From positions 1-11,439 of the forward strand of contig JBIOKB010000027.1 in the NCBI GenBank assembly GCA_044451405.1: a DNA stretch of 11,439 nucleotides. The letters run 5' to 3'. Shown here piece by piece: positions 2,295-11,163 of this stretch. Below the pieces are notes generated by a model. The model ran no database searches, was not told the origin of the DNA, and worked only from the letters and a program-made list of their open reading frames with translations. Origin of the DNA: Candidatus Babeliales bacterium (GTDB lineage Bacteria > Babelota > Babeliae > Babelales > Vermiphilaceae). Positions within the stretch are counted from its first letter, which is position 1. Each line of letters opens with the position of its first letter. A program made the position numbers and the translations under genes.

Positions 2295-3194
2295 ATGATT
2301 CTCATTATTATATTGTATGCGCTGTGGGCTGCATCAATCTCATCAAGCAAAATTCTTCTTACCTATTCATCTCCCCTCTTTTTAACGGGGATTCGTATGC
2401 TTATTGCAGGGTTGTTATTGCTTGGCTACCAATATTTTTATGCACATCATCATTTTCGTTTTCACAAAGAACATACCTATTTGTATGGGCAAGTCATTGT
2501 CTTTGGCATCCTTATTTCTTATTTTCTGCGTTTTTGGGCGCTTGAATATATCACCGCTACTAAATTACTCTTTTTGTATAACCTTGCGCCGTTTATGTCC
2601 GCTCTACACTCCTACTTCTTCCTTAATGAACGCATGAGCACACGTAAATGGATTGGCATGTTGATCGGCTTTATTGGTCTATTACCTATCTTGCTTAATT
2701 CATCAGAGCAAGAAAAATCAGTCGGCGAATTATATTTTATTTCCTGGCCAGAACTGGCAGTTATCCTATCAGTTGCTACCAATAGCTACAGTTGGATTGT
2801 TATGCGCAAACTCGTGCGCGATGAACACTATTCACCCATGATGATTAACGGTATTTGTATGACGCTTGGTGGCCTACTTGCCCTTTTCATTGCCATTCCT
2901 CTTGAATGGCCGTGCCCTGTTACGAATGTATGGGCTTTTATTGGTTGGCTTGCGTTTATTATCATTATCAGCAACATCGTAAGTCACAACTTATATGGAT
3001 ATTTACTCCGTGATTACACCGCCACCTTTTTATCATTTGCCGGTTTTATGAGCCCGTTGTTTGCAGGGCTGTATGGCTGGCTATTTTTTCATGAAACAAT
3101 TACCTGGCACTTTTATGCATCAAGTATTATTGTATTTATCGGGTTATTTCTCTTCTATCAAGATGAAATACAAGAGCAGGAAACGCTTATTTAA
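2295..3194 (+). CDS. EamA/DMT family transporter
   Basis: 299 aa with about 10 hydrophobic segments in two repeats. Motifs PLFLTGIRMLIAGLLL, LAPFMSALHSYFFLNER...KWIGMLIGFIG and PLFAGLYGWLFFHETITW. Confidence 0.9.
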   Translation: MILIIILYALWAASISSSKILLTYSSPLFLTGIRMLIAGLLLLGYQYFYAHHHFRFHKEHTYLYGQVIVFGILISYFLRFWALEYITATKLLFLYNLAPFMSALHSYFFLNERMSTRKWIGMLIGFIGLLPILLNSSEQEKSVGELYFISWPELAVILSVATNSYSWIVMRKLVRDEHYSPMMINGICMTLGGLLALFIAIPLEWPCPVTNVWAFIGWLAFIIIISNIVSHNLYGYLLRDYTATFLSFAGFMSPLFAGLYGWLFFHETITWHFYASSIIVFIGLFLFYQDEIQEQETLI

Positions 3195-3854
3195 TTACAA
3201 AATTACACATCCGCAGCATCCTTTTTTATTCGCCTGCGCATGTGCAGCAATGTCAGCTGCTAATTCTTTATCCAACTGATCATCTAGAATGGGCTCAACA
3301 CGTTTATTTTCCACTCGAGAGTCAATGTATATTCCTAGTTGGACAATAACATTTCTTATGAGTTGATTTCCCACCTCTTCACGTTGATGTGTATCCAAAC
3401 CTGGCAGACACGCTACTACCCTGGCCATAGATTTTCGTAAATTAGGCTCTTGCGCAAGAATCTTTTGATGAACACTGTCTTCAAGACTCTTTTGACGAGC
3501 ACTATTTTTAGGAGAATTCTGACGACTTGATAGTGGAGATCCTAATATAGCATATGATCGTTCTGTCCCTTCTTCTGTATCGGTATCACGCTCATCAGCA
3601 GAACTCCGTCTACTGCCAGAACTTTTACTCCCATTACTTTTTGAACGAGGAAACAATAGTGAACTGGTACCAGAATCAGAGTGTGGTAACATATCACGAG
3701 ATTGTATATGCACAGGCTGCAAACTAACTGCTCCTACTTCTGCAACAAGCGAGGAAAGTGATCGTTCCGACCCTGGACCCTTCTTATCAGCCGCATAACC
3801 AACCAAAGAACTGCATACTAACAGTACGTATCCCAACCGCATACCTTCATTCAT
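3195..3854 (-). CDS. Secreted Ser-rich protein with C-terminal CaaX box (KKGCCGCVIL); candidate host-prenylated effector
   Basis: 219 aa. RBS AGGGGGGAG. Signal-like MRLGYVLLVCSSLVGYA|AD. Ends TGT GTA ATT TTG TAA. Confidence 0.85.
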   Translation of the reverse strand: MNEGMRLGYVLLVCSSLVGYAADKKGPGSERSLSSLVAEVGAVSLQPVHIQSRDMLPHSDSGTSSLLFPRSKSNGSKSSGSRRSSADERDTDTEEGTERSYAILGSPLSSRQNSPKNSARQKSLEDSVHQKILAQEPNLRKSMARVVACLPGLDTHQREEVGNQLIRNVIVQLGIYIDSRVENKRVEPILDDQLDKELAADIAAHAQANKKGCCGCVIL

Positions 3855-3866
3855 ATTCTCCCCCCT

Positions 3867-4490
3867 TTACAATATTACACAACACCTACGTTGACTCTGT
3901 TTTTGACGCAACTTTAGAATCTCTGCAGCTAATGTTTGCTCTGGAATCATAGGATTTATCACCTGTAACACTTTCAACAGATGTACTGCAGTAATATTAT
4001 CTCTGAATGCTATTTTATCAGCTGGTAATCTTGCAAAAATTTTTGTCAGCGCAGGTTCAAGTATTTTTATATCAGAAGCAAGTTCTTTCTCGTTTATAGA
4101 ACATTGGGACTGTTGAACTGTACCACGAGTATCATCTGCTAACGCTATTAAATATTCTCTCTGTTTATTCTTAAATAGCCCACTACCAGAATCAACCCCA
4201 TGATCACGTCGCTGCTCATCGGTAAGTGGTTCAGCAAAACTCGATTCAGCAGTAGGAGTACTAAAGGTATCTTCTAAATCTCCTTCAGTTGGTTTCATTT
4301 TGGCAACTTTCTCAAGCAACGCAGTCTGCAAATCATCATGGGACACAGATGAAGCTAATCCCTGTTCACTACTACGTGAAATAGATCGGTTCGGCAATCG
4401 CGCTGATCCTCCTTTTGGCTTTTCTTCAGCGGCAGATAGCATTGATACTATAAAAATGTGCATCATTACAGCGTATACCACCCTAGACAT
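3867..4490 (-). CDS. Secreted protein with C-terminal CaaX box (RQKQSQRRCCVIL); candidate host-prenylated effector
   Basis: 207 aa. RBS GGAGGG. Signal-like MSRVVYAVMMHIFIVSMLSA|AE. Ends TGT GTA ATA TTG TAA. Lies 12 nt upstream of the next gene. Confidence 0.85.
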   Translation of the reverse strand: MSRVVYAVMMHIFIVSMLSAAEEKPKGGSARLPNRSISRSSEQGLASSVSHDDLQTALLEKVAKMKPTEGDLEDTFSTPTAESSFAEPLTDEQRRDHGVDSGSGLFKNKQREYLIALADDTRGTVQQSQCSINEKELASDIKILEPALTKIFARLPADKIAFRDNITAVHLLKVLQVINPMIPEQTLAAEILKLRQKQSQRRCCVIL

Positions 4491-4505
4491 ATACCCTCCA
4501 TTTCA

Positions 4506-5651
4506 TTATAGAATTACACAACATGGTGAACAACTCGAACAACAACCAGCACAGCATCCTACTTTAAACGATTTTTCTATCTCATCAGCAAAGTGTTGAT
4601 CTTGTTGAACAGAAAGTATTGTTGGCATTGGCAACGTACTACTTTTGGTTCGGTGATGAGCATGATACAAAGAAGCAAGTGCTTGGCGTGTCTTTTCTTT
4701 CGCAGTTCTATTTAACTTTACCGAATCTTTTATCGTATCACGTAACGCAGATCGTAATCTTTCTTCTGTTTTTGGTACTTCGAATTTAAGTTTTCTATAA
4801 TAAGCGAGCGTGTTAGGCGACAGATCTCCTTGCAACCATTCATCGCGTGCAACATCACCGCCTGAAGCAATCGACCCTCCTCTACTACCAGCACCAAGCG
4901 CTGCAAAATCTACATGCTGCTCATCAGTAATTTCTTCACCATCAATAGTTTGCAAATTGCCACTTGCAAGTAATCTGTCGCCTGGTTTAGCTTTTTGTTC
5001 TTCTTTAACAATTTTACGAAAATGCTTGCGCGTCTCGGGAGTATTTTTACCTGCAATATTGCACCTATTTTCAACAAGCAGTTTTATTACAGGATCATCT
5101 TCTTGTGATCCTGCAGAACTTCGTCTACTTTTTGGGCTAGTGAGAACAGCAGCTACACTGTGTCTCGGACTCGGTCTTGGACTACGCATAGTACTCAAAG
5201 CAGCACTTGCGTTTATTGGGTTCTTAAGTGTCGCACCAGCACCACTTCTTTGACTCGGACTTGGTCTTGCATACGTAGTAACAGGCAGCGCATCTCCTGT
5301 CGCACTATCCTTAAAAGTAAAAGATCTAGTAATACGAGCACCATAGGGCACTTCTCCAGTGCCTGGCTCAACGGTAACACGCAAGTCTCTCCTACTGCTA
5401 GCTTCAACTTCTTTATCAGATTCTTCTTCTAATATAGGTTGTGCTGGAGGCATTCTTTGCATACGCATAGCTCCCTCAAATGGCGGGCCTTCCGATGAAA
5501 CTGAACGAGCCAACAATGGTTCTTGTGCATCAGGATTTTCTGCAAATGTTACTTCTTTATGTGGACTCGTTTTTTTGGATTTTTCTGATGCGCATATAAA
5601 ACCGGATGCAAGAAAAAGAACGAGTATAGTGTAATAGTTGATGGTTTTCAT
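4506..5651 (-). CDS. Secreted Ser/Arg/Pro-rich protein with Cys-string plus CaaX box (GCCAGCCSSCSPCCVIL); candidate host-lipidated effector
   Basis: Part of ORF 4506..5699. The likely start is MKTINYYTILVLFLASGFICA|SE at 5651 after GAGTGGGG (381 aa). Ends TGT GTA ATT CTA TAA. Lies 15 nt upstream of the next gene. Confidence 0.85.
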   Translation of the reverse strand: MKTINYYTILVLFLASGFICASEKSKKTSPHKEVTFAENPDAQEPLLARSVSSEGPPFEGAMRMQRMPPAQPILEEESDKEVEASSRRDLRVTVEPGTGEVPYGARITRSFTFKDSATGDALPVTTYARPSPSQRSGAGATLKNPINASAALSTMRSPRPSPRHSVAAVLTSPKSRRSSAGSQEDDPVIKLLVENRCNIAGKNTPETRKHFRKIVKEEQKAKPGDRLLASGNLQTIDGEEITDEQHVDFAALGAGSRGGSIASGGDVARDEWLQGDLSPNTLAYYRKLKFEVPKTEERLRSALRDTIKDSVKLNRTAKEKTRQALASLYHAHHRTKSSTLPMPTILSVQQDQHFADEIEKSFKVGCCAGCCSSCSPCCVIL

Positions 5652-5781
5652 ATATCCCCACTCATATAATAATGAGCACCCATGTGGTGCATATCTCAAC
5701 TATACAAACAACGAAGCTCATTTTTCCATTGTTTAGAAAAATGAGCTCACCAAACATTGGTAAAATACGATTAAAATTAAG

Positions 5782-5970
5782 TTATTTAAGATTAATTAAG
5801 CAGGCTTCTTTATTAACTTCATCAACAAATGATGTTTCAACATCCTGGGATTCTTCTGGAAAAACCATAGAAAAACACTGCAAACAGGAGCCTTCTCCTT
5901 GTTGGTGCCTCCACAGCATAAAAAATGTAAGAAAAACCAATCCTACCAGTACCCAAACTACTTTCTTCAT
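5782..5970 (-). CDS. Small membrane-anchored hypothetical protein (62 aa)
   Basis: MKKVVWVLVGLVFLTFFMLWRH N-terminal TM/signal after RBS-like AAGGGGG. Contains a CLQC motif and an acidic tail. Confidence 0.6.
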   Translation of the reverse strand: MKKVVWVLVGLVFLTFFMLWRHQQGEGSCLQCFSMVFPEESQDVETSFVDEVNKEACLINLK

Positions 5971-5986
5971 CCATTTCCCCCTTTTA

Positions 5987-6015
5987 ATCATAGCATACCA
6001 CATATCAATTGACAA
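5987..6015 (-). promoter_or_regulatory. Putative sigma70 promoter for the leftward genes
   Basis: Minus strand TTGTCA (6010-6015), 17 nt spacer ending TGC (extended -10), TATGAT (5987-5992). Confidence 0.4.
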
Positions 6016-6095: not shown

Positions 6096-6713
6096 ATGAA
6101 GAAACTCGTATATCTATTCCTACTAACCATACCTGCAAGCCCAGTACTTTATGGGCAACAAGCAACTCATTATGGAGCCTACGCTAAGGCCGGAGCTCGC
6201 CATCTTTTTTCTACTGATGGAATCAAAGATATTGCCGCTGTATATGGCATTGTCGTGGGTATGACCCTCATTCATGAACTAGGTCACGCTGTAGTAGCAA
6301 AATTAAAATGCGGTGCACCAATAGATATTGTTATTGGTGGCGAACGAAGTGGAAAAGATTCCCTCTTAAGAAAATATACTGGTATTGAAGTCGCTGGATT
6401 CAATCCATTAAAAGTTGGTACCGACTGGGAAAAATACAAGTCAAAAGATGCAAAAAAAGCAGCTGAGCAAGAAATCATAGTTGGCATAGCCGGCCCACTC
6501 GCACAAGCGATGACCTGTTATTGTATATATAGATGGTTGCAAAATAAGGATAAGTTCTATCTTGCCAAGACAACAGCTATAGGTGGAATAGGTGATACAA
6601 TTCTAGGGGTTAATGGTATTCTTGGTGCACTGTTTCTTCCATGGACCGATTCAGCACGGATCGTGCAAAACATTAAACAATACTTTTCAACTAAATCTCA
6701 TCACACGTCATAA
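6096..6713 (+). CDS. Site-2 protease/peptidase M50-like zinc metalloprotease
   Basis: LIHELGH (HExxH) in a hydrophobic segment, IAGPLAQ motif, and LPWTDSARI corresponding to the NxxPxxxxDG third-ligand motif. N-terminal signal-like sequence. Confidence 0.75.
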   Translation: MKKLVYLFLLTIPASPVLYGQQATHYGAYAKAGARHLFSTDGIKDIAAVYGIVVGMTLIHELGHAVVAKLKCGAPIDIVIGGERSGKDSLLRKYTGIEVAGFNPLKVGTDWEKYKSKDAKKAAEQEIIVGIAGPLAQAMTCYCIYRWLQNKDKFYLAKTTAIGGIGDTILGVNGILGALFLPWTDSARIVQNIKQYFSTKSHHTS

Positions 6714-7577: not shown

Positions 7578-7661
7578 TGGCACTGCCCAGTCAGCGAAGA
7601 TTGGCGCTAGCCAGGCGTAGCCTAATCAAACTTCGAAGTTATTCCCTAAGGCGAAGACTGG
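7578..7661 (-). repeat. tRNA-3'-linked structured repeat (full unit plus degenerate second unit)
   Basis: Minus strand CCAGTCTTCGCC-TTAG-GGAATAACTTCGAAGT-TTGAT-TAGGCTACGCCTGGCTAGCGCCA, then ATCTTCGCTGACTGGGCAGTGCCA. Matches 9717-9779. Confidence 0.8.
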
Positions 7662-7735
7662 TGCGCCTAAGAGGAGTCGAACCTCTAACCTTCAGATCCG
7701 TAGTCTGACGCTCTGTCCAGTTGAGCTATAGGCGC
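7659..7735 (-). tRNA. tRNA-Arg(ACG)
   Basis: GCGCCTATAGCTCAACTGGACAGAGCGTCAGACT-ACG-GATCTGAAGGTTAGAGGTTCGACTCCTCTTAGGCGCACCA. 77 nt with encoded CCA. Confidence 0.97.
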
Positions 7736-7789: not shown

Positions 7790-7810
7790 ATTCCCTAGGG
7801 CGAAGACTGG
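7790..7810 (-). repeat. Truncated copy of the tRNA-3'-linked repeat
   Basis: CCAGTCTTCGCCCTAGGGAAT, 20/21 identical to the start of the tRNA-Arg copy. Confidence 0.75.
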
Positions 7811-7899
7811 CGGAGAGAGAGGGATTCGAACCCTCGCGCCCGGTTTACCCAGACTCTTGCTTAGCAGGCAAGCGCTTTAGACCACTCAGCCATCTCTCC
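7808..7899 (-). tRNA. tRNA-Ser(GCT)
   Basis: GGAGAGATGGCTGAGTGGTCTAAAGCG-CTTGCCT-GCT-AAGCAAG, long variable arm, GGTTCGAATCC, ends CTCTCCGCCA. Ser(GCT)-Arg(ACG) order as in the conserved serV-argV arrangement. Confidence 0.97.
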
Positions 7900-8384: not shown

Positions 8385-9584
8385 ATGCCCTATTTTAAAT
8401 GGTACGGCGTTGATATCACTGGTACGTATCGCTCCGGATATTGTTTTGCTCCTTCCCAAGAACTTTTAGATTGCTTGCTGATTAAACAGGAAGTTGCCTT
8501 ATTAAAAGCACAACCAGTTTCTATGCCTCGGTTGGGACATGGTATTACAAAGACGTGCATGGTACAGCTATTGTCTCAACTTGCAGTGCTCGTACATTCA
8601 GGTGTTTTTCTTGCCGATGCACTTATTATTGTAGCTGAACAATCATCTAATCCGTATATGCAAGAAATGGTATACGCATTGGCTGAACACATACATAAAG
8701 GCATCTCATTCAGTGATGCTTGCAAATATTATCCACATTACTTTACACCACTTATGATTCACACCATCCAGATTGGCCAAGAAACGGGCGCATTAGCATC
8801 TGCACTAGAACAGGTGTGTGAACACATACTGATGATGGAAAATTTTAATAAAGAACTTAAATCAGCAGCGCTTATGCCCGCTATAACATTTCTCTTTTTT
8901 GTGTGTATAGCAGCAACGATTGTTTTTGGCATTATGCCCCGCTTTATACAAATGCTTTCACTCAAACATACAGATATACCACCAATTACCCGTTTTTTAA
9001 TGCATATTAGTTCCAGTATTTGCATATACCATGTACTCGGCGCTGTGCTGGTAATTGCACTCGGGATACTATGTACTACATGGTATTACCGTTCTACAAA
9101 GGGCAAGTATGTTATTGATAAAAGCATAACGCATATTCCATGTATTGGCCCTCTTACAACTACCATGTGGAGTATTTATTATCTGCGTTCATTAGCATTG
9201 CTTATCAAAACTGGCATGCCGTTGGTTCCTGCTATGCGCATAGCAGCACATACCATTGATAATGCGTATTGGCATCTATCAGCACTACACATGAGTAAAG
9301 AAGTTGAAGCAGGAAAATTGTTAAGTCAGGCTATGGTACAGGAGCAGCGATTGTTTGGCCGCGATATTCAAGCGTTAGTCGCAGTAGGAGAACAATCAAC
9401 ACGGTTAAGTGATCTTCTTACCCATGCTGCAGATAATGCACAAAAGCATGTTAAGCGCCAACTTGCATTCTATGTACAAGTATTTCAACCACTGCTACTT
9501 TTGATCATTGGATTATGTATAGCAGGGCTTATTGCTGCTACGTATATTCCTATTCTTACTATGAGTAGTTCGCTTGGATTCTAA
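8385..9584 (+). CDS. pilC: Type II secretion system F / type IV pilus inner-membrane platform protein
   Basis: 399 aa with two T2SSF repeats: QLAVLVHSGVFLADAL...IQIGQETGAL and LALLIKTGMPLVPA...VAVGEQSTRL. Three TM segments and a PilC-like N-terminus MPYFKWYGVD. Confidence 0.88.
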   Translation: MPYFKWYGVDITGTYRSGYCFAPSQELLDCLLIKQEVALLKAQPVSMPRLGHGITKTCMVQLLSQLAVLVHSGVFLADALIIVAEQSSNPYMQEMVYALAEHIHKGISFSDACKYYPHYFTPLMIHTIQIGQETGALASALEQVCEHILMMENFNKELKSAALMPAITFLFFVCIAATIVFGIMPRFIQMLSLKHTDIPPITRFLMHISSSICIYHVLGAVLVIALGILCTTWYYRSTKGKYVIDKSITHIPCIGPLTTTMWSIYYLRSLALLIKTGMPLVPAMRIAAHTIDNAYWHLSALHMSKEVEAGKLLSQAMVQEQRLFGRDIQALVAVGEQSTRLSDLLTHAADNAQKHVKRQLAFYVQVFQPLLLLIIGLCIAGLIAATYIPILTMSSSLGF

Positions 9585-11075: not shown

Positions 11076-11163
11076 GGAGAGGTGGCAGAGTGGCCGAATG
11101 CGGCGGTCTTGAAAACCGTTATCCTGAAAGGGATCGTGGGTTCGAATCCCACCCTCTCCTCCA
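11076..11163 (+). tRNA. tRNA-Ser(TGA)
   Basis: GGAGAGGTGGCAGAGTGGCCGAATGCG-GCGGTCT-TGA-AAACCGT, variable arm, GGTTCGAATCC, ends CCTCTCC-T-CCA. Confidence 0.97.

Follow-up and report, generated by a model that had tools for sequence, protein, structure and literature searches.

Leader-bearing proteins ending in CVIL in a Babelota genome: a tandem array of candidate substrates for host geranylgeranylation

Several effectors of intracellular bacteria are lipidated by enzymes of their hosts. AnkB and PelC/PelE of Legionella pneumophila carry a C-terminal CaaX box that is served by the host farnesyl or geranylgeranyl machinery and leads to membrane anchoring (PMC2916131, PMC13081727), and host prenylation of a C-terminal CaaX box aids the membrane association of Salmonella SifA and GtgE (GtgE: PMC13423502). 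On the eukaryotic side, the CVIL peptide of Rap2B was co-crystallised with geranylgeranyltransferase I (GGTase-I; PDB 1N4Q), the localisation of FBXL2 depends on CVIL (PMC9141697), and the green fluorescent protein (GFP) fusion GFP-BD-CVIL was geranylgeranylated in tobacco cells (PMC4536634). The MYXO-CTERM/myxosortase system of the Myxococcota pairs a leader with an invariant C-terminal cysteine tag, has dozens of clients per genome and depends on type II secretion (PMC11980579). We analysed a stretch of 11,439 nt (hereafter, the window), contig JBIOKB010000027.1 of the Candidatus Babeliales bacterium assembly GCA_044451405.1. It contains three consecutive genes, g1, g2 and g3, whose products start with signal-peptide-like segments and end in CVIL (Table 1). 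With moderate confidence we read g1-g3 as putative Sec-exported effectors that would be geranylgeranylated, and probably S-acylated, by a protist host.

A preliminary description of this locus had reported three co-oriented genes, spaced by 12 and 15 nt, each with a ribosome-binding site (RBS) and each closed by CVIL in differing codons; all this was confirmed in the sequence. The spacers are located at 3855-3866 (g2/g1) and 4491-4505 (g3/g2), and the purine-rich RBS-like strings lie 5-8 nt 5' of the ATG of each gene. The CVIL codons read TGT GTA ATT TTG, TGT GTA ATA TTG and TGT GTA ATT CTA, with TAA as the stop codon in all three cases. The start of g3 was set at 5651, the methionine of MKTINY, because the homologues begin at this methionine (the mechanical list of open reading frames, ORFs, gives a TTG at 5699), while the g2 start at 4490 is backed by the homologue P0008. 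Along the g3 protein the leader is followed by a long Ser/Pro/Arg-rich region of low model confidence with an RRxS-acidic motif, then by a helical C-terminal part and by a cluster of eight cysteines, all within the last 16 residues, that ends in CVIL.

The signal-peptide-like starts claimed for the three proteins were seen as well, as judged by eye and by a crude home-made heuristic. Each N-terminus has a basic residue, a hydrophobic core of 12-16 residues and a small-x-Ala site (GYA/AD, LSA/AE and ICA/SE in g1, g2 and g3, respectively). All three pass the leader heuristic, and the n-h-c layout is kept in the homologues.

To our gene set for the window's own genome belonged 1,011 ORFs, obtained by crude calls (the longest ORF of at least 80 aa, greedy removal of overlaps). 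CVIL was found at four C-termini and at no internal position; it was, jointly with DGNL, the top terminal tetrapeptide. Composition predicts 0.007 such termini, and when the last 20 residues of each protein were shuffled 1,000 times, 0.005 were obtained on average and never more than 1. The CVIL at the C-termini of g1-g3 is not a product of chance. We observed the same tendency for C-[VIL]-[VIL]-[LMFI] termini (5 vs 0.19 expected) and for strict CaaX termini (7, where the internal rate predicts 1.24; P 3e-4). The genome-wide count of CaaX termini that the preliminary description had proposed as a check came out in favour of its core idea in this gene set. The co-occurrence with leaders, another of its proposed checks, was observed too: the leader heuristic was passed by 5 of the 7 strict CaaX proteins compared to 26% of genes (Fisher P 0.015), and a looser version of the heuristic by 6 of 8 CaaX proteins compared to 28% (P 0.008). 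A second cysteine at positions -10 to -5 was present in 4 of the 8 CaaX proteins and in 69 of the 1,003 others (P 1e-3).

Beside g1-g3, the strict CaaX set comprises a fourth CVIL protein (C34), a CIIM protein (C6), a CCIIQ protein (C24) and a CLFA protein (C11). The further CaaX proteins of this genome are orphans too, and non-canonical CIPL and CAQI tails also occur in it. For example, a 164-aa leader-bearing orphan at C20 15700-16194 ends in GDGCCDDCCGCCCIPL, a nine-cysteine tail with the non-canonical C-I-P-L. Another protein, at C6 21627-23066, has a leader-like N-terminus, ankyrin repeats and, at its C-terminus, a MYND zinc finger (E 5e-13) and shows that eukaryote-type domains ride on putative leaders in this genome.

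Homologues were searched for among 5.8 billion proteins and then, exhaustively and with profiles, among 1.84 billion representatives. The former search yielded five homologues, two each for g3 and g1 and a single one for g2; the latter added one full-length relative of g3 and two fragments. Whole CVIL, preceded by cysteine, was retained in 6/6 full-length homologues (34-60% identity), which bears out the expected retention of the cysteine at -4; the fragments P0010 and P0012, having no C-terminus, are outside this count. The g3 homologues P0002, P0003 and P0009 (53, 35 and 34% identity) all end in CVIL, with the last five residues invariant in the three-sequence alignment of this family and with GCCSSCVIL as the end of P0009. 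The g2 homologue P0008 (43% identity) ends in QSQCCCVIL, and the g1 homologues P0005 and P0006 (60 and 55%) in CCDCVIL and CCSCVIL. A naive product of identities to the fourth power, which ignores rate variation and relatedness, puts the probability of such tail retention at 7e-9. As judged from these alignments, the conservation shows the tail to be under strong purifying selection.

Three of the six full-length homologues reside on contigs all recorded as 10,967 bp, and this shared figure suggests a conserved array. A metagenome scan had as its sole yield a 2.6-kb contig (L008) that carries codons 1-72 of a g3 homologue next to counterparts of the Nudix, HIT and small membrane-protein genes of the window. 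No sequencing runs were on record for the locus. In the genomes of 40 relatives, neither a g3 homologue nor a homologue of the C34 CVIL protein was found; g1 had one match there (E 0.008), with two in-frame TGA codons, and the C24 CaaX protein had one match (E 1e-4).

The phylum was represented by 261 species genomes of one order, with sizes from 0.5 to 2.4 Mb. We collected 31 full-length proteins ending in CVIL; they fall into 20 clusters unrelated by BLAST and come from eight genomes of four families as well as from metagenomes. A hydrophobic leader start was seen by eye in 30 of the 31. The initial DNA pattern for C-V-I-L-stop, TGYGTNATHYTNTRR, was too loose. In genomes with low counts its matches were mostly due to chance (1/25 in an ORF of at least 60 aa), and matches of a stricter pattern in such genomes still closed a long ORF in just 2/30 cases. 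In five relatives picked for high pattern counts, CVIL-stop closed an ORF of at least 100 aa in 13 of the 18 distinct cases (G086 5/5, G055 3/4, G110 3/4, G050 2/3, G113 0/2), compared to 0/9 for the CVIF-stop matches of the same pattern, which served as a built-in control. Further contexts gave 6/6 in G086, 1/6 in G006, 0/4 in G023 and 0/2 in each of G079, G050 and G039. The high counts of G006 and G023 were mostly produced by a short repeat or by chance. In G006, a 15-mer with the same 16-codon upstream frame recurs (C1 369420, 753408 and 972662; C6 8797), a short dispersed repeat inflating the count.

The genome G086, a member of another family (28.5% GC) chosen for its CVIL count, was inspected over 929,894 bp in 28 of its 30 contigs, with 981 ORFs. 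Cysteine at position -4 was present in 68 of these ORFs, compared to 12.6 expected and to 10-32 at the neighbouring positions. Termini of the form C-x-[ILVMF]-X numbered 37 vs 1.9 expected (never above 9 in 1,000 shuffles), and 34 of the 37 proteins had a leader-like start compared to 47% of all ORFs (Fisher P 6e-9). A second upstream cysteine was found in 13/37 vs 92/944. The tails were CVIL (12), CTIL (5), CAIL (4), CIIL (4), CIIN (4), CSIL (1) and CEIL (1), and also CIIS, CLIM, CVIQ and CFIQ. Tandem arrays were observed here as well, six genes at C1 54586-57001 and four genes at C11 6917-8449, coding for leader-bearing proteins of 107-201 aa with CVIL, CTIL or CIIL ends; some of the array members are recognisable paralogues. 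G086 is a much stronger instance of the leader plus CaaX design than the window. The preliminary description had pictured a single local array; the array itself stands, while its uniqueness does not, as the design is met again in four or more families and on a far larger scale in G086. It should be kept in mind that the leader heuristics flag from 26 to 47% of all ORFs, depending on the set.

In 27 proteins of G086 the tail has the form C-[V/T/A/I/S/E]-I-L, with free choice at a1, nearly invariant Ile at a2 and Leu at X. In GGTase-I the a1 side chain makes no contact with the isoprenoid and the a2 side chain does (PMC9141697). Farnesyl-type variants (X = M, Q or S) are present on similar leader-bearing proteins. 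The tail is, therefore, best read as following the eukaryotic GGTase-I rule, beyond a mere Cys-x-x-x end.

The statement that the enzymes of CaaX prenylation are eukaryotic is in agreement with the content of the window's genome. The prenyltransferase beta subunit (PF00432) was not found in it, the alpha subunit family lying outside the search; also not found were Rce1/CPBP (PF02517), for which the same search was positive in 11 of 14 control genomes, and ICMT (PF04140). In the five relatives with high pattern counts PF00432 was not found either. We consider host prenylation the best reading of the tails because of the rule of free a1, Ile at a2 and Leu at X, the enrichment of adjacent cysteines, the lack of detected homologues of the pathway in the bacterium, and the probable dependence of the organism on a eukaryotic host.

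This dependence is suggested by gene content. The window is contig 27 of a genome of 1.02 Mb, 40% GC and 95.7% completeness with three genes of TLC ATP/ADP (nucleotide) translocases, and the organism appears to be obligate intracellular and protist-dependent. That it is not free-living, in line with the protist host envisaged in the preliminary description, agrees with both the genome size and the translocases. The traits of the genome (small size, ATP/ADP translocases, two gspD, type II/type IV pilus genes, no other secretion system found) match those published for TM6/Dependentiae (TM6/Babelota), and together with the shape of the clade they make membership in this group most likely. For TM6 genomes the reported features are sizes of 1.0-1.5 Mb, ATP/ADP translocases in those studied, two gspD copies and type II/type IV pilus genes (PMC4776705).

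The export parts that we detected are two secretins on one contig, a GspE ATPase, the GspF of the window and signal peptidase I. Single-marker searches of this 95.7%-complete genome found no FHIPEP (type III secretion) and no VirB4 (type IV secretion). The only export route detected would thus be a type II secretion/type IV pilus-like apparatus. A similar situation is described for other Dependentiae, whose leader-bearing host-directed proteins were inferred to be secreted to the host cytoplasm via type II, the sole system present (PMC4378268, PMC6561590). In Chromulinavorax, 44% of coding sequences have leaders and the cell sits in the host cytoplasm (PMC6561590), and type II substrates of Legionella are reported in the macrophage cytosol (PMC5478897). 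A single-marker search found no DsbA-family protein in the window's genome, and exported thiols may, therefore, stay reduced.

A possible sequence of events is as follows. The proteins would cross the inner membrane via Sec, with the leader removed by signal peptidase I, and would leave the cell through the type II secretion/type IV pilus-like apparatus or, alternatively, in vesicles. Upon arrival in the host cytosol, C-V-I-L could be read as a CaaX box by the host GGTase-I, which would add a C20 isoprenoid to the cysteine at -4, and host Rce1 and ICMT would complete the tail. Upstream cysteines may be S-acylated, as in dually lipidated Ras and Rho proteins, resulting in stable anchoring to a host membrane.

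A number of points weigh against this reading of g1-g3. Leader cleavage, the exit route, arrival in the host cytosol, lipidation and the function of the protein bodies are all inferred rather than observed. A Sec leader leads to the periplasm and not to the host cytosol, so an extra, undemonstrated step is needed; to our knowledge, all known host-prenylated effectors are type III or type IV substrates. The exact CVIL dominates in several genomes, more tightly than the generic CaaX need, and this dominance could point to a more specific reader. In the window's genome there were 8 canonical (looser) termini against an expectation of about 2, and one or more of the 1,000 shuffles reached 8 too; cysteine at -4 formed no visible peak there (19 vs 14 expected, no different from -5 and -6), and polybasic stretches upstream of the tails were not enriched. 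The gene calls were crude, the leader tests home-made, and G086 was picked for its CVIL count.

The census of G009 was equivocal. This genome of the window's own family had been chosen beforehand as a single contig, and 1.2 of its 1.229 Mb were covered. It had no C-[VIL]-[VIL]-L terminus at all and three strict CaaX termini vs 1.36 expected. The looser motif gave 8 termini where 2.65 were expected (Poisson P 0.006), a count matched by one or more of the 1,000 shuffles; a leader-like start was assigned to 3 of the 8 automatically (Fisher P 0.67) and to 6 of the 8 by eye.

Would a tag read by the bacterium itself explain the data better? Such a sorting or lipidation tag, with a bacterial enzyme lipidating or cleaving at the cysteine and type II delivery to the surface, would share its logic with MYXO-CTERM, which has a leader, an invariant C-terminal cysteine with generic GCGC, dozens of clients and type II delivery (PMC11980579). 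The GCCGC of the g1 tail, the tight preference for CVIL in several genomes, which suits a dedicated bacterial reader, and the putative export signal of g1-g3 to the periplasm all fit. Still, just three residues follow the cysteine, and the transmembrane helix and Arg-rich cluster of MYXO-CTERM are absent; searches of the genome revealed neither a CPBP/Rce1-like protease nor a homologue of a prenyltransferase or of ICMT, and the pattern seen in G086 is the rule of the eukaryotic enzyme. We regard a bacterial tag as unlikely, though as the strongest of the alternatives. In another alternative the proteins do act on host membranes, and the N-terminal segment, instead of being a Sec leader that is cleaved off, is a membrane anchor or another targeting element. 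This would make them bitopic proteins of the envelope or of the vacuole membrane, with the cysteine tail S-acylated or inserted and no prenylation involved. The leaders were, indeed, judged by eye and by heuristics that flag a large share of ORFs, and some of them are atypical; the proteins at C6 12084-12686 and C34 5408-6325, for example, did not pass the stricter test. On the other hand, g1-g3 and their homologues keep the classical n-h-c layout with its small-x-Ala site, a signal peptidase I gene is present in the genome, and a fixed a2 and X would not be required for S-acylation alone. An anchor of this kind seems quite improbable.

The tail may also be a non-lipid signal acting in the host or in the periplasm, either a ligand of a PDZ domain or tail-specific protease or a metal-binding or disulfide-forming cysteine cluster, with an incidental likeness to CaaX. 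V-I-L-COOH does fit the hydrophobic C-terminus that PDZ domains and tail-specific proteases take, and the eight cysteines in the last 16 residues of g3 exceed what lipidation needs. Left unexplained, however, are the exact fixation of cysteine at -4 in G086, the free a1 beside fixed a2 and X, and the farnesyl-type CIIM, CIIQ, CIIS and CLIM on similar leader-bearing proteins, which makes a non-lipid signal the least probable of the explanations considered. Host geranylgeranylation of exported proteins remains the reading that we prefer.

The bodies of the three proteins gave few clues. The preliminary description had called them a protein family, and this did not hold as a demonstrable set of paralogues: BLASTP among g1, g2 and g3 gave no match at E<1, and profile-profile comparison by hhalign gave probabilities of 34%, 25% and 3% over short local segments of 16-29 columns. 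Common to the three is the architecture, with a leader, a Ser/Pro/Arg-rich low-confidence region, a helical part, a cysteine cluster and CVIL. Tandem duplication followed by rapid divergence is a reasonable origin for g1-g3, since some members of the G086 arrays are recognisable paralogues. Profile searches against Pfam, NCBIfam and PDB returned nothing above threshold for g1-g3, and in the ESM Atlas there was no usable feature match, with all structure rows at a template modelling (TM) score <0.25. The AlphaFold2 (AF2) model of g1 had a mean predicted local distance difference test score (pLDDT) of 43, with residues 1-117 below 50 and helices at 115-181, too poor to search for related folds; the ESM Atlas model of g3 had a pLDDT of 0.39. 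As a part of the best explanation, g1-g3 would be fast-evolving, largely disordered proteins of effector type. RRxS with acidic residues is present in 3/4 members of the g3 family, 3/3 of the g1 family and 0/2 of the g2 family; that it is a host kinase site is speculation.

Table 1. Coordinates of the features of the g1-g3 locus, of the other CaaX proteins of the genome and of the neighbouring genes in the window (leader boundaries are approximate)
Feature	Coordinates	Strand	Description
g1	3195-3854	minus	219-aa orphan, signal-peptide-like start, C-terminus NKKGCCGCVIL
g2	3867-4490	minus	207-aa orphan, signal-peptide-like start, C-terminus QSQRRCCVIL
g3	4506-5651	minus	381-aa orphan, signal-peptide-like start, C-terminus CCAGCCSSCSPCCVIL
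g1 RBS-like string	3857-3866	minus	AGGGGGGAGA, inside the 12-nt spacer preceding g1; read from sequence
g2 RBS-like string	4494-4499	minus	GGAGGG, inside the 15-nt spacer preceding g2; read from sequence
g3 RBS-like string	5655-5659	minus	GGGGA, preceding g3; read from sequence
g1 tail	3198-3218	minus	CCG-CVIL with KKG before it; sequence and family alignment
g2 tail	3870-3884	minus	C-CVIL with RR before it; sequence and family alignment
g3 tail	4509-4556	minus	CCAGCCSSCSPC-CVIL; CaaX box (Cys at -4, Val, Ile, Leu) after seven further Cys
g1 signal-peptide-like segment	3789-3854	minus	MNEGMRLGYVLLVCSSLVGYA/AD; by eye and heuristic
g2 signal-peptide-like segment	4428-4490	minus	MSRVVYAVMMHIFIVSMLSA/AEE; by eye and heuristic
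g3 signal-peptide-like segment	5589-5651	minus	MKTINYYTILVLFLASGFICA/SEK; by eye and heuristic; kept in P0002, P0003 and P0009
Terminator-like hairpin and promoter-like site	5699-5748	minus	5' of g3; hairpin 5748-5714 (15 pairs) overlapping promoter-like site 5728-5699; consensus matches only
CVIL protein, own genome	C34 5408-6325		Weak ankyrin-repeat match below the Pfam cut-off
CIIM protein, own genome	C6
CCIIQ protein, own genome	C24
CLFA protein, own genome	C11
Leader-bearing 479-aa protein	3-1439	minus	3'-open at the window edge
EamA transporter gene	2295-3194	plus	Convergent with g1
Small CxxC-motif gene	5782-5988	minus	Directly 5' of g3
Leader-bearing 205-aa protein	6096-6713	plus	HELGH motif
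GspF-type platform protein	8385-9584	plus	T2SSF, E 1.5e-44
tRNA-Arg-ACG	7659-7735
tRNA-Ser-GCT	7808-7899
tRNA-Leu-CAA	9634-9719
tRNA-Ser-TGA	11076-11163

As regards the surroundings of the array (Table 1), the stop codon of g1 adjoins that of the EamA transporter gene. If the hairpin and the promoter-like site upstream of g3 are real, g1-g3 may, tentatively, form a transcription unit of their own; the scan produced 7 promoter-like sites vs 8.5 expected from shuffles. The small gene directly 5' of g3 codes for a membrane-anchored protein with a CxxC motif (MKKVVWVLVGLVFLTFF...) and with no family match; a relative of it stands beside the g3 homologue on L008 (2049-2237). The GspF-type platform protein is encoded 2.7 kb from the array, and the tail of a GspF homologue is also located on L008 near the g3 homologue, a proximity that may be coincidental. 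For the leader-bearing 479-aa protein at the window edge Pfam gave no match. The Atlas clusters nearest to it consist of unnamed bacterial proteins, and in one further set 21% of the members carry the outer-membrane domain Phenol_MetA_deg; the 479-aa protein is probably a lineage-specific outer-membrane protein. The 205-aa protein with the HELGH motif has sub-threshold matches to M50 site-2 proteases (23 bits vs the cut-off of 27). Four tRNA genes are interspersed among the protein genes of the window.

On a broader scale, we hold the odds to be about even that a phylum without an injection system marks unrelated, fast-evolving proteins by a Sec leader and a CaaX box (mostly C-x-I-L, often with extra cysteines), releases them by the general and type II routes and has them anchored by geranylgeranyl- and acyltransferases of the host, for about 4% of predicted genes in some genomes and in arrays of up to six. 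If so, host prenylation, known from a few injected proteins of Legionella and Salmonella, would be used wholesale by a widespread and almost unstudied phylum of protist parasites. This would also imply a route, unrecognised so far, from the periplasm of an intracellular bacterium to the host cytosol with only Sec and type II-like export, and leader plus CaaX would become a simple sequence rule for picking host-membrane effectors among orphan genes. The presence of the same design across the phylum suggests that these parasites let the host fasten secreted proteins to its own membranes. The tails are short enough for direct assays as GFP fusions in yeast or amoebae, with no need to grow the bacterium itself.

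With respect to the systems described at the outset, g1-g3 would resemble the CaaX effectors of Legionella in their presumed use of the host lipidation machinery, and the weak ankyrin match of the C34 CVIL protein echoes AnkB. Unlike g1-g3, with their leader-like starts in a genome where neither VirB4 nor FHIPEP was found, the Legionella effectors are Dot/Icm type IV substrates with no Sec leaders; g1-g3 have no sequence similarity to them and no Pfam family above the cut-off. SifA and GtgE, with which g1-g3 would share prenylation by the host, differ in being type III substrates encoded by single genes and having no Sec leader. In SifA, prenylation is accompanied by S-acylation of a neighbouring cysteine, a combination that would come nearest to the CC-VIL tails.

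The tetrapeptide itself is identical to that of the eukaryotic GGTase-I substrates Rap2B, FBXL2 and rice CaM61; these are cytosolic eukaryotic proteins, whereas g1-g3 are bacterial, leader-bearing and unrelated in sequence. With MYXO-CTERM the likeness lies in the leader and the invariant C-terminal cysteine, while its transmembrane helix and Arg-rich cluster after the cysteine and its CPBP protease were not found here. Closest in lifestyle are Babela massiliensis and Chromulinavorax destructans, which have leaders on ankyrin and other host-directed proteins and type II as the sole system detected (PMC4378268, PMC6561590). In the excerpts of papers on TM6/Dependentiae biology that were searched, the word 'caax' did not occur, nor did 'prenyl' or 'caax' in the excerpted Babela paper (PMC4378268); full-text searches, whose coverage excluded supplements and subscription journals, returned no paper in which Dependentiae are connected with CaaX or prenylation. 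The trick of host prenylation is thus known, and what appears to be new is that it would be coupled to putative Sec leaders in a phylum that lacks injection systems and that, in some of its genomes, the scale would be very large.

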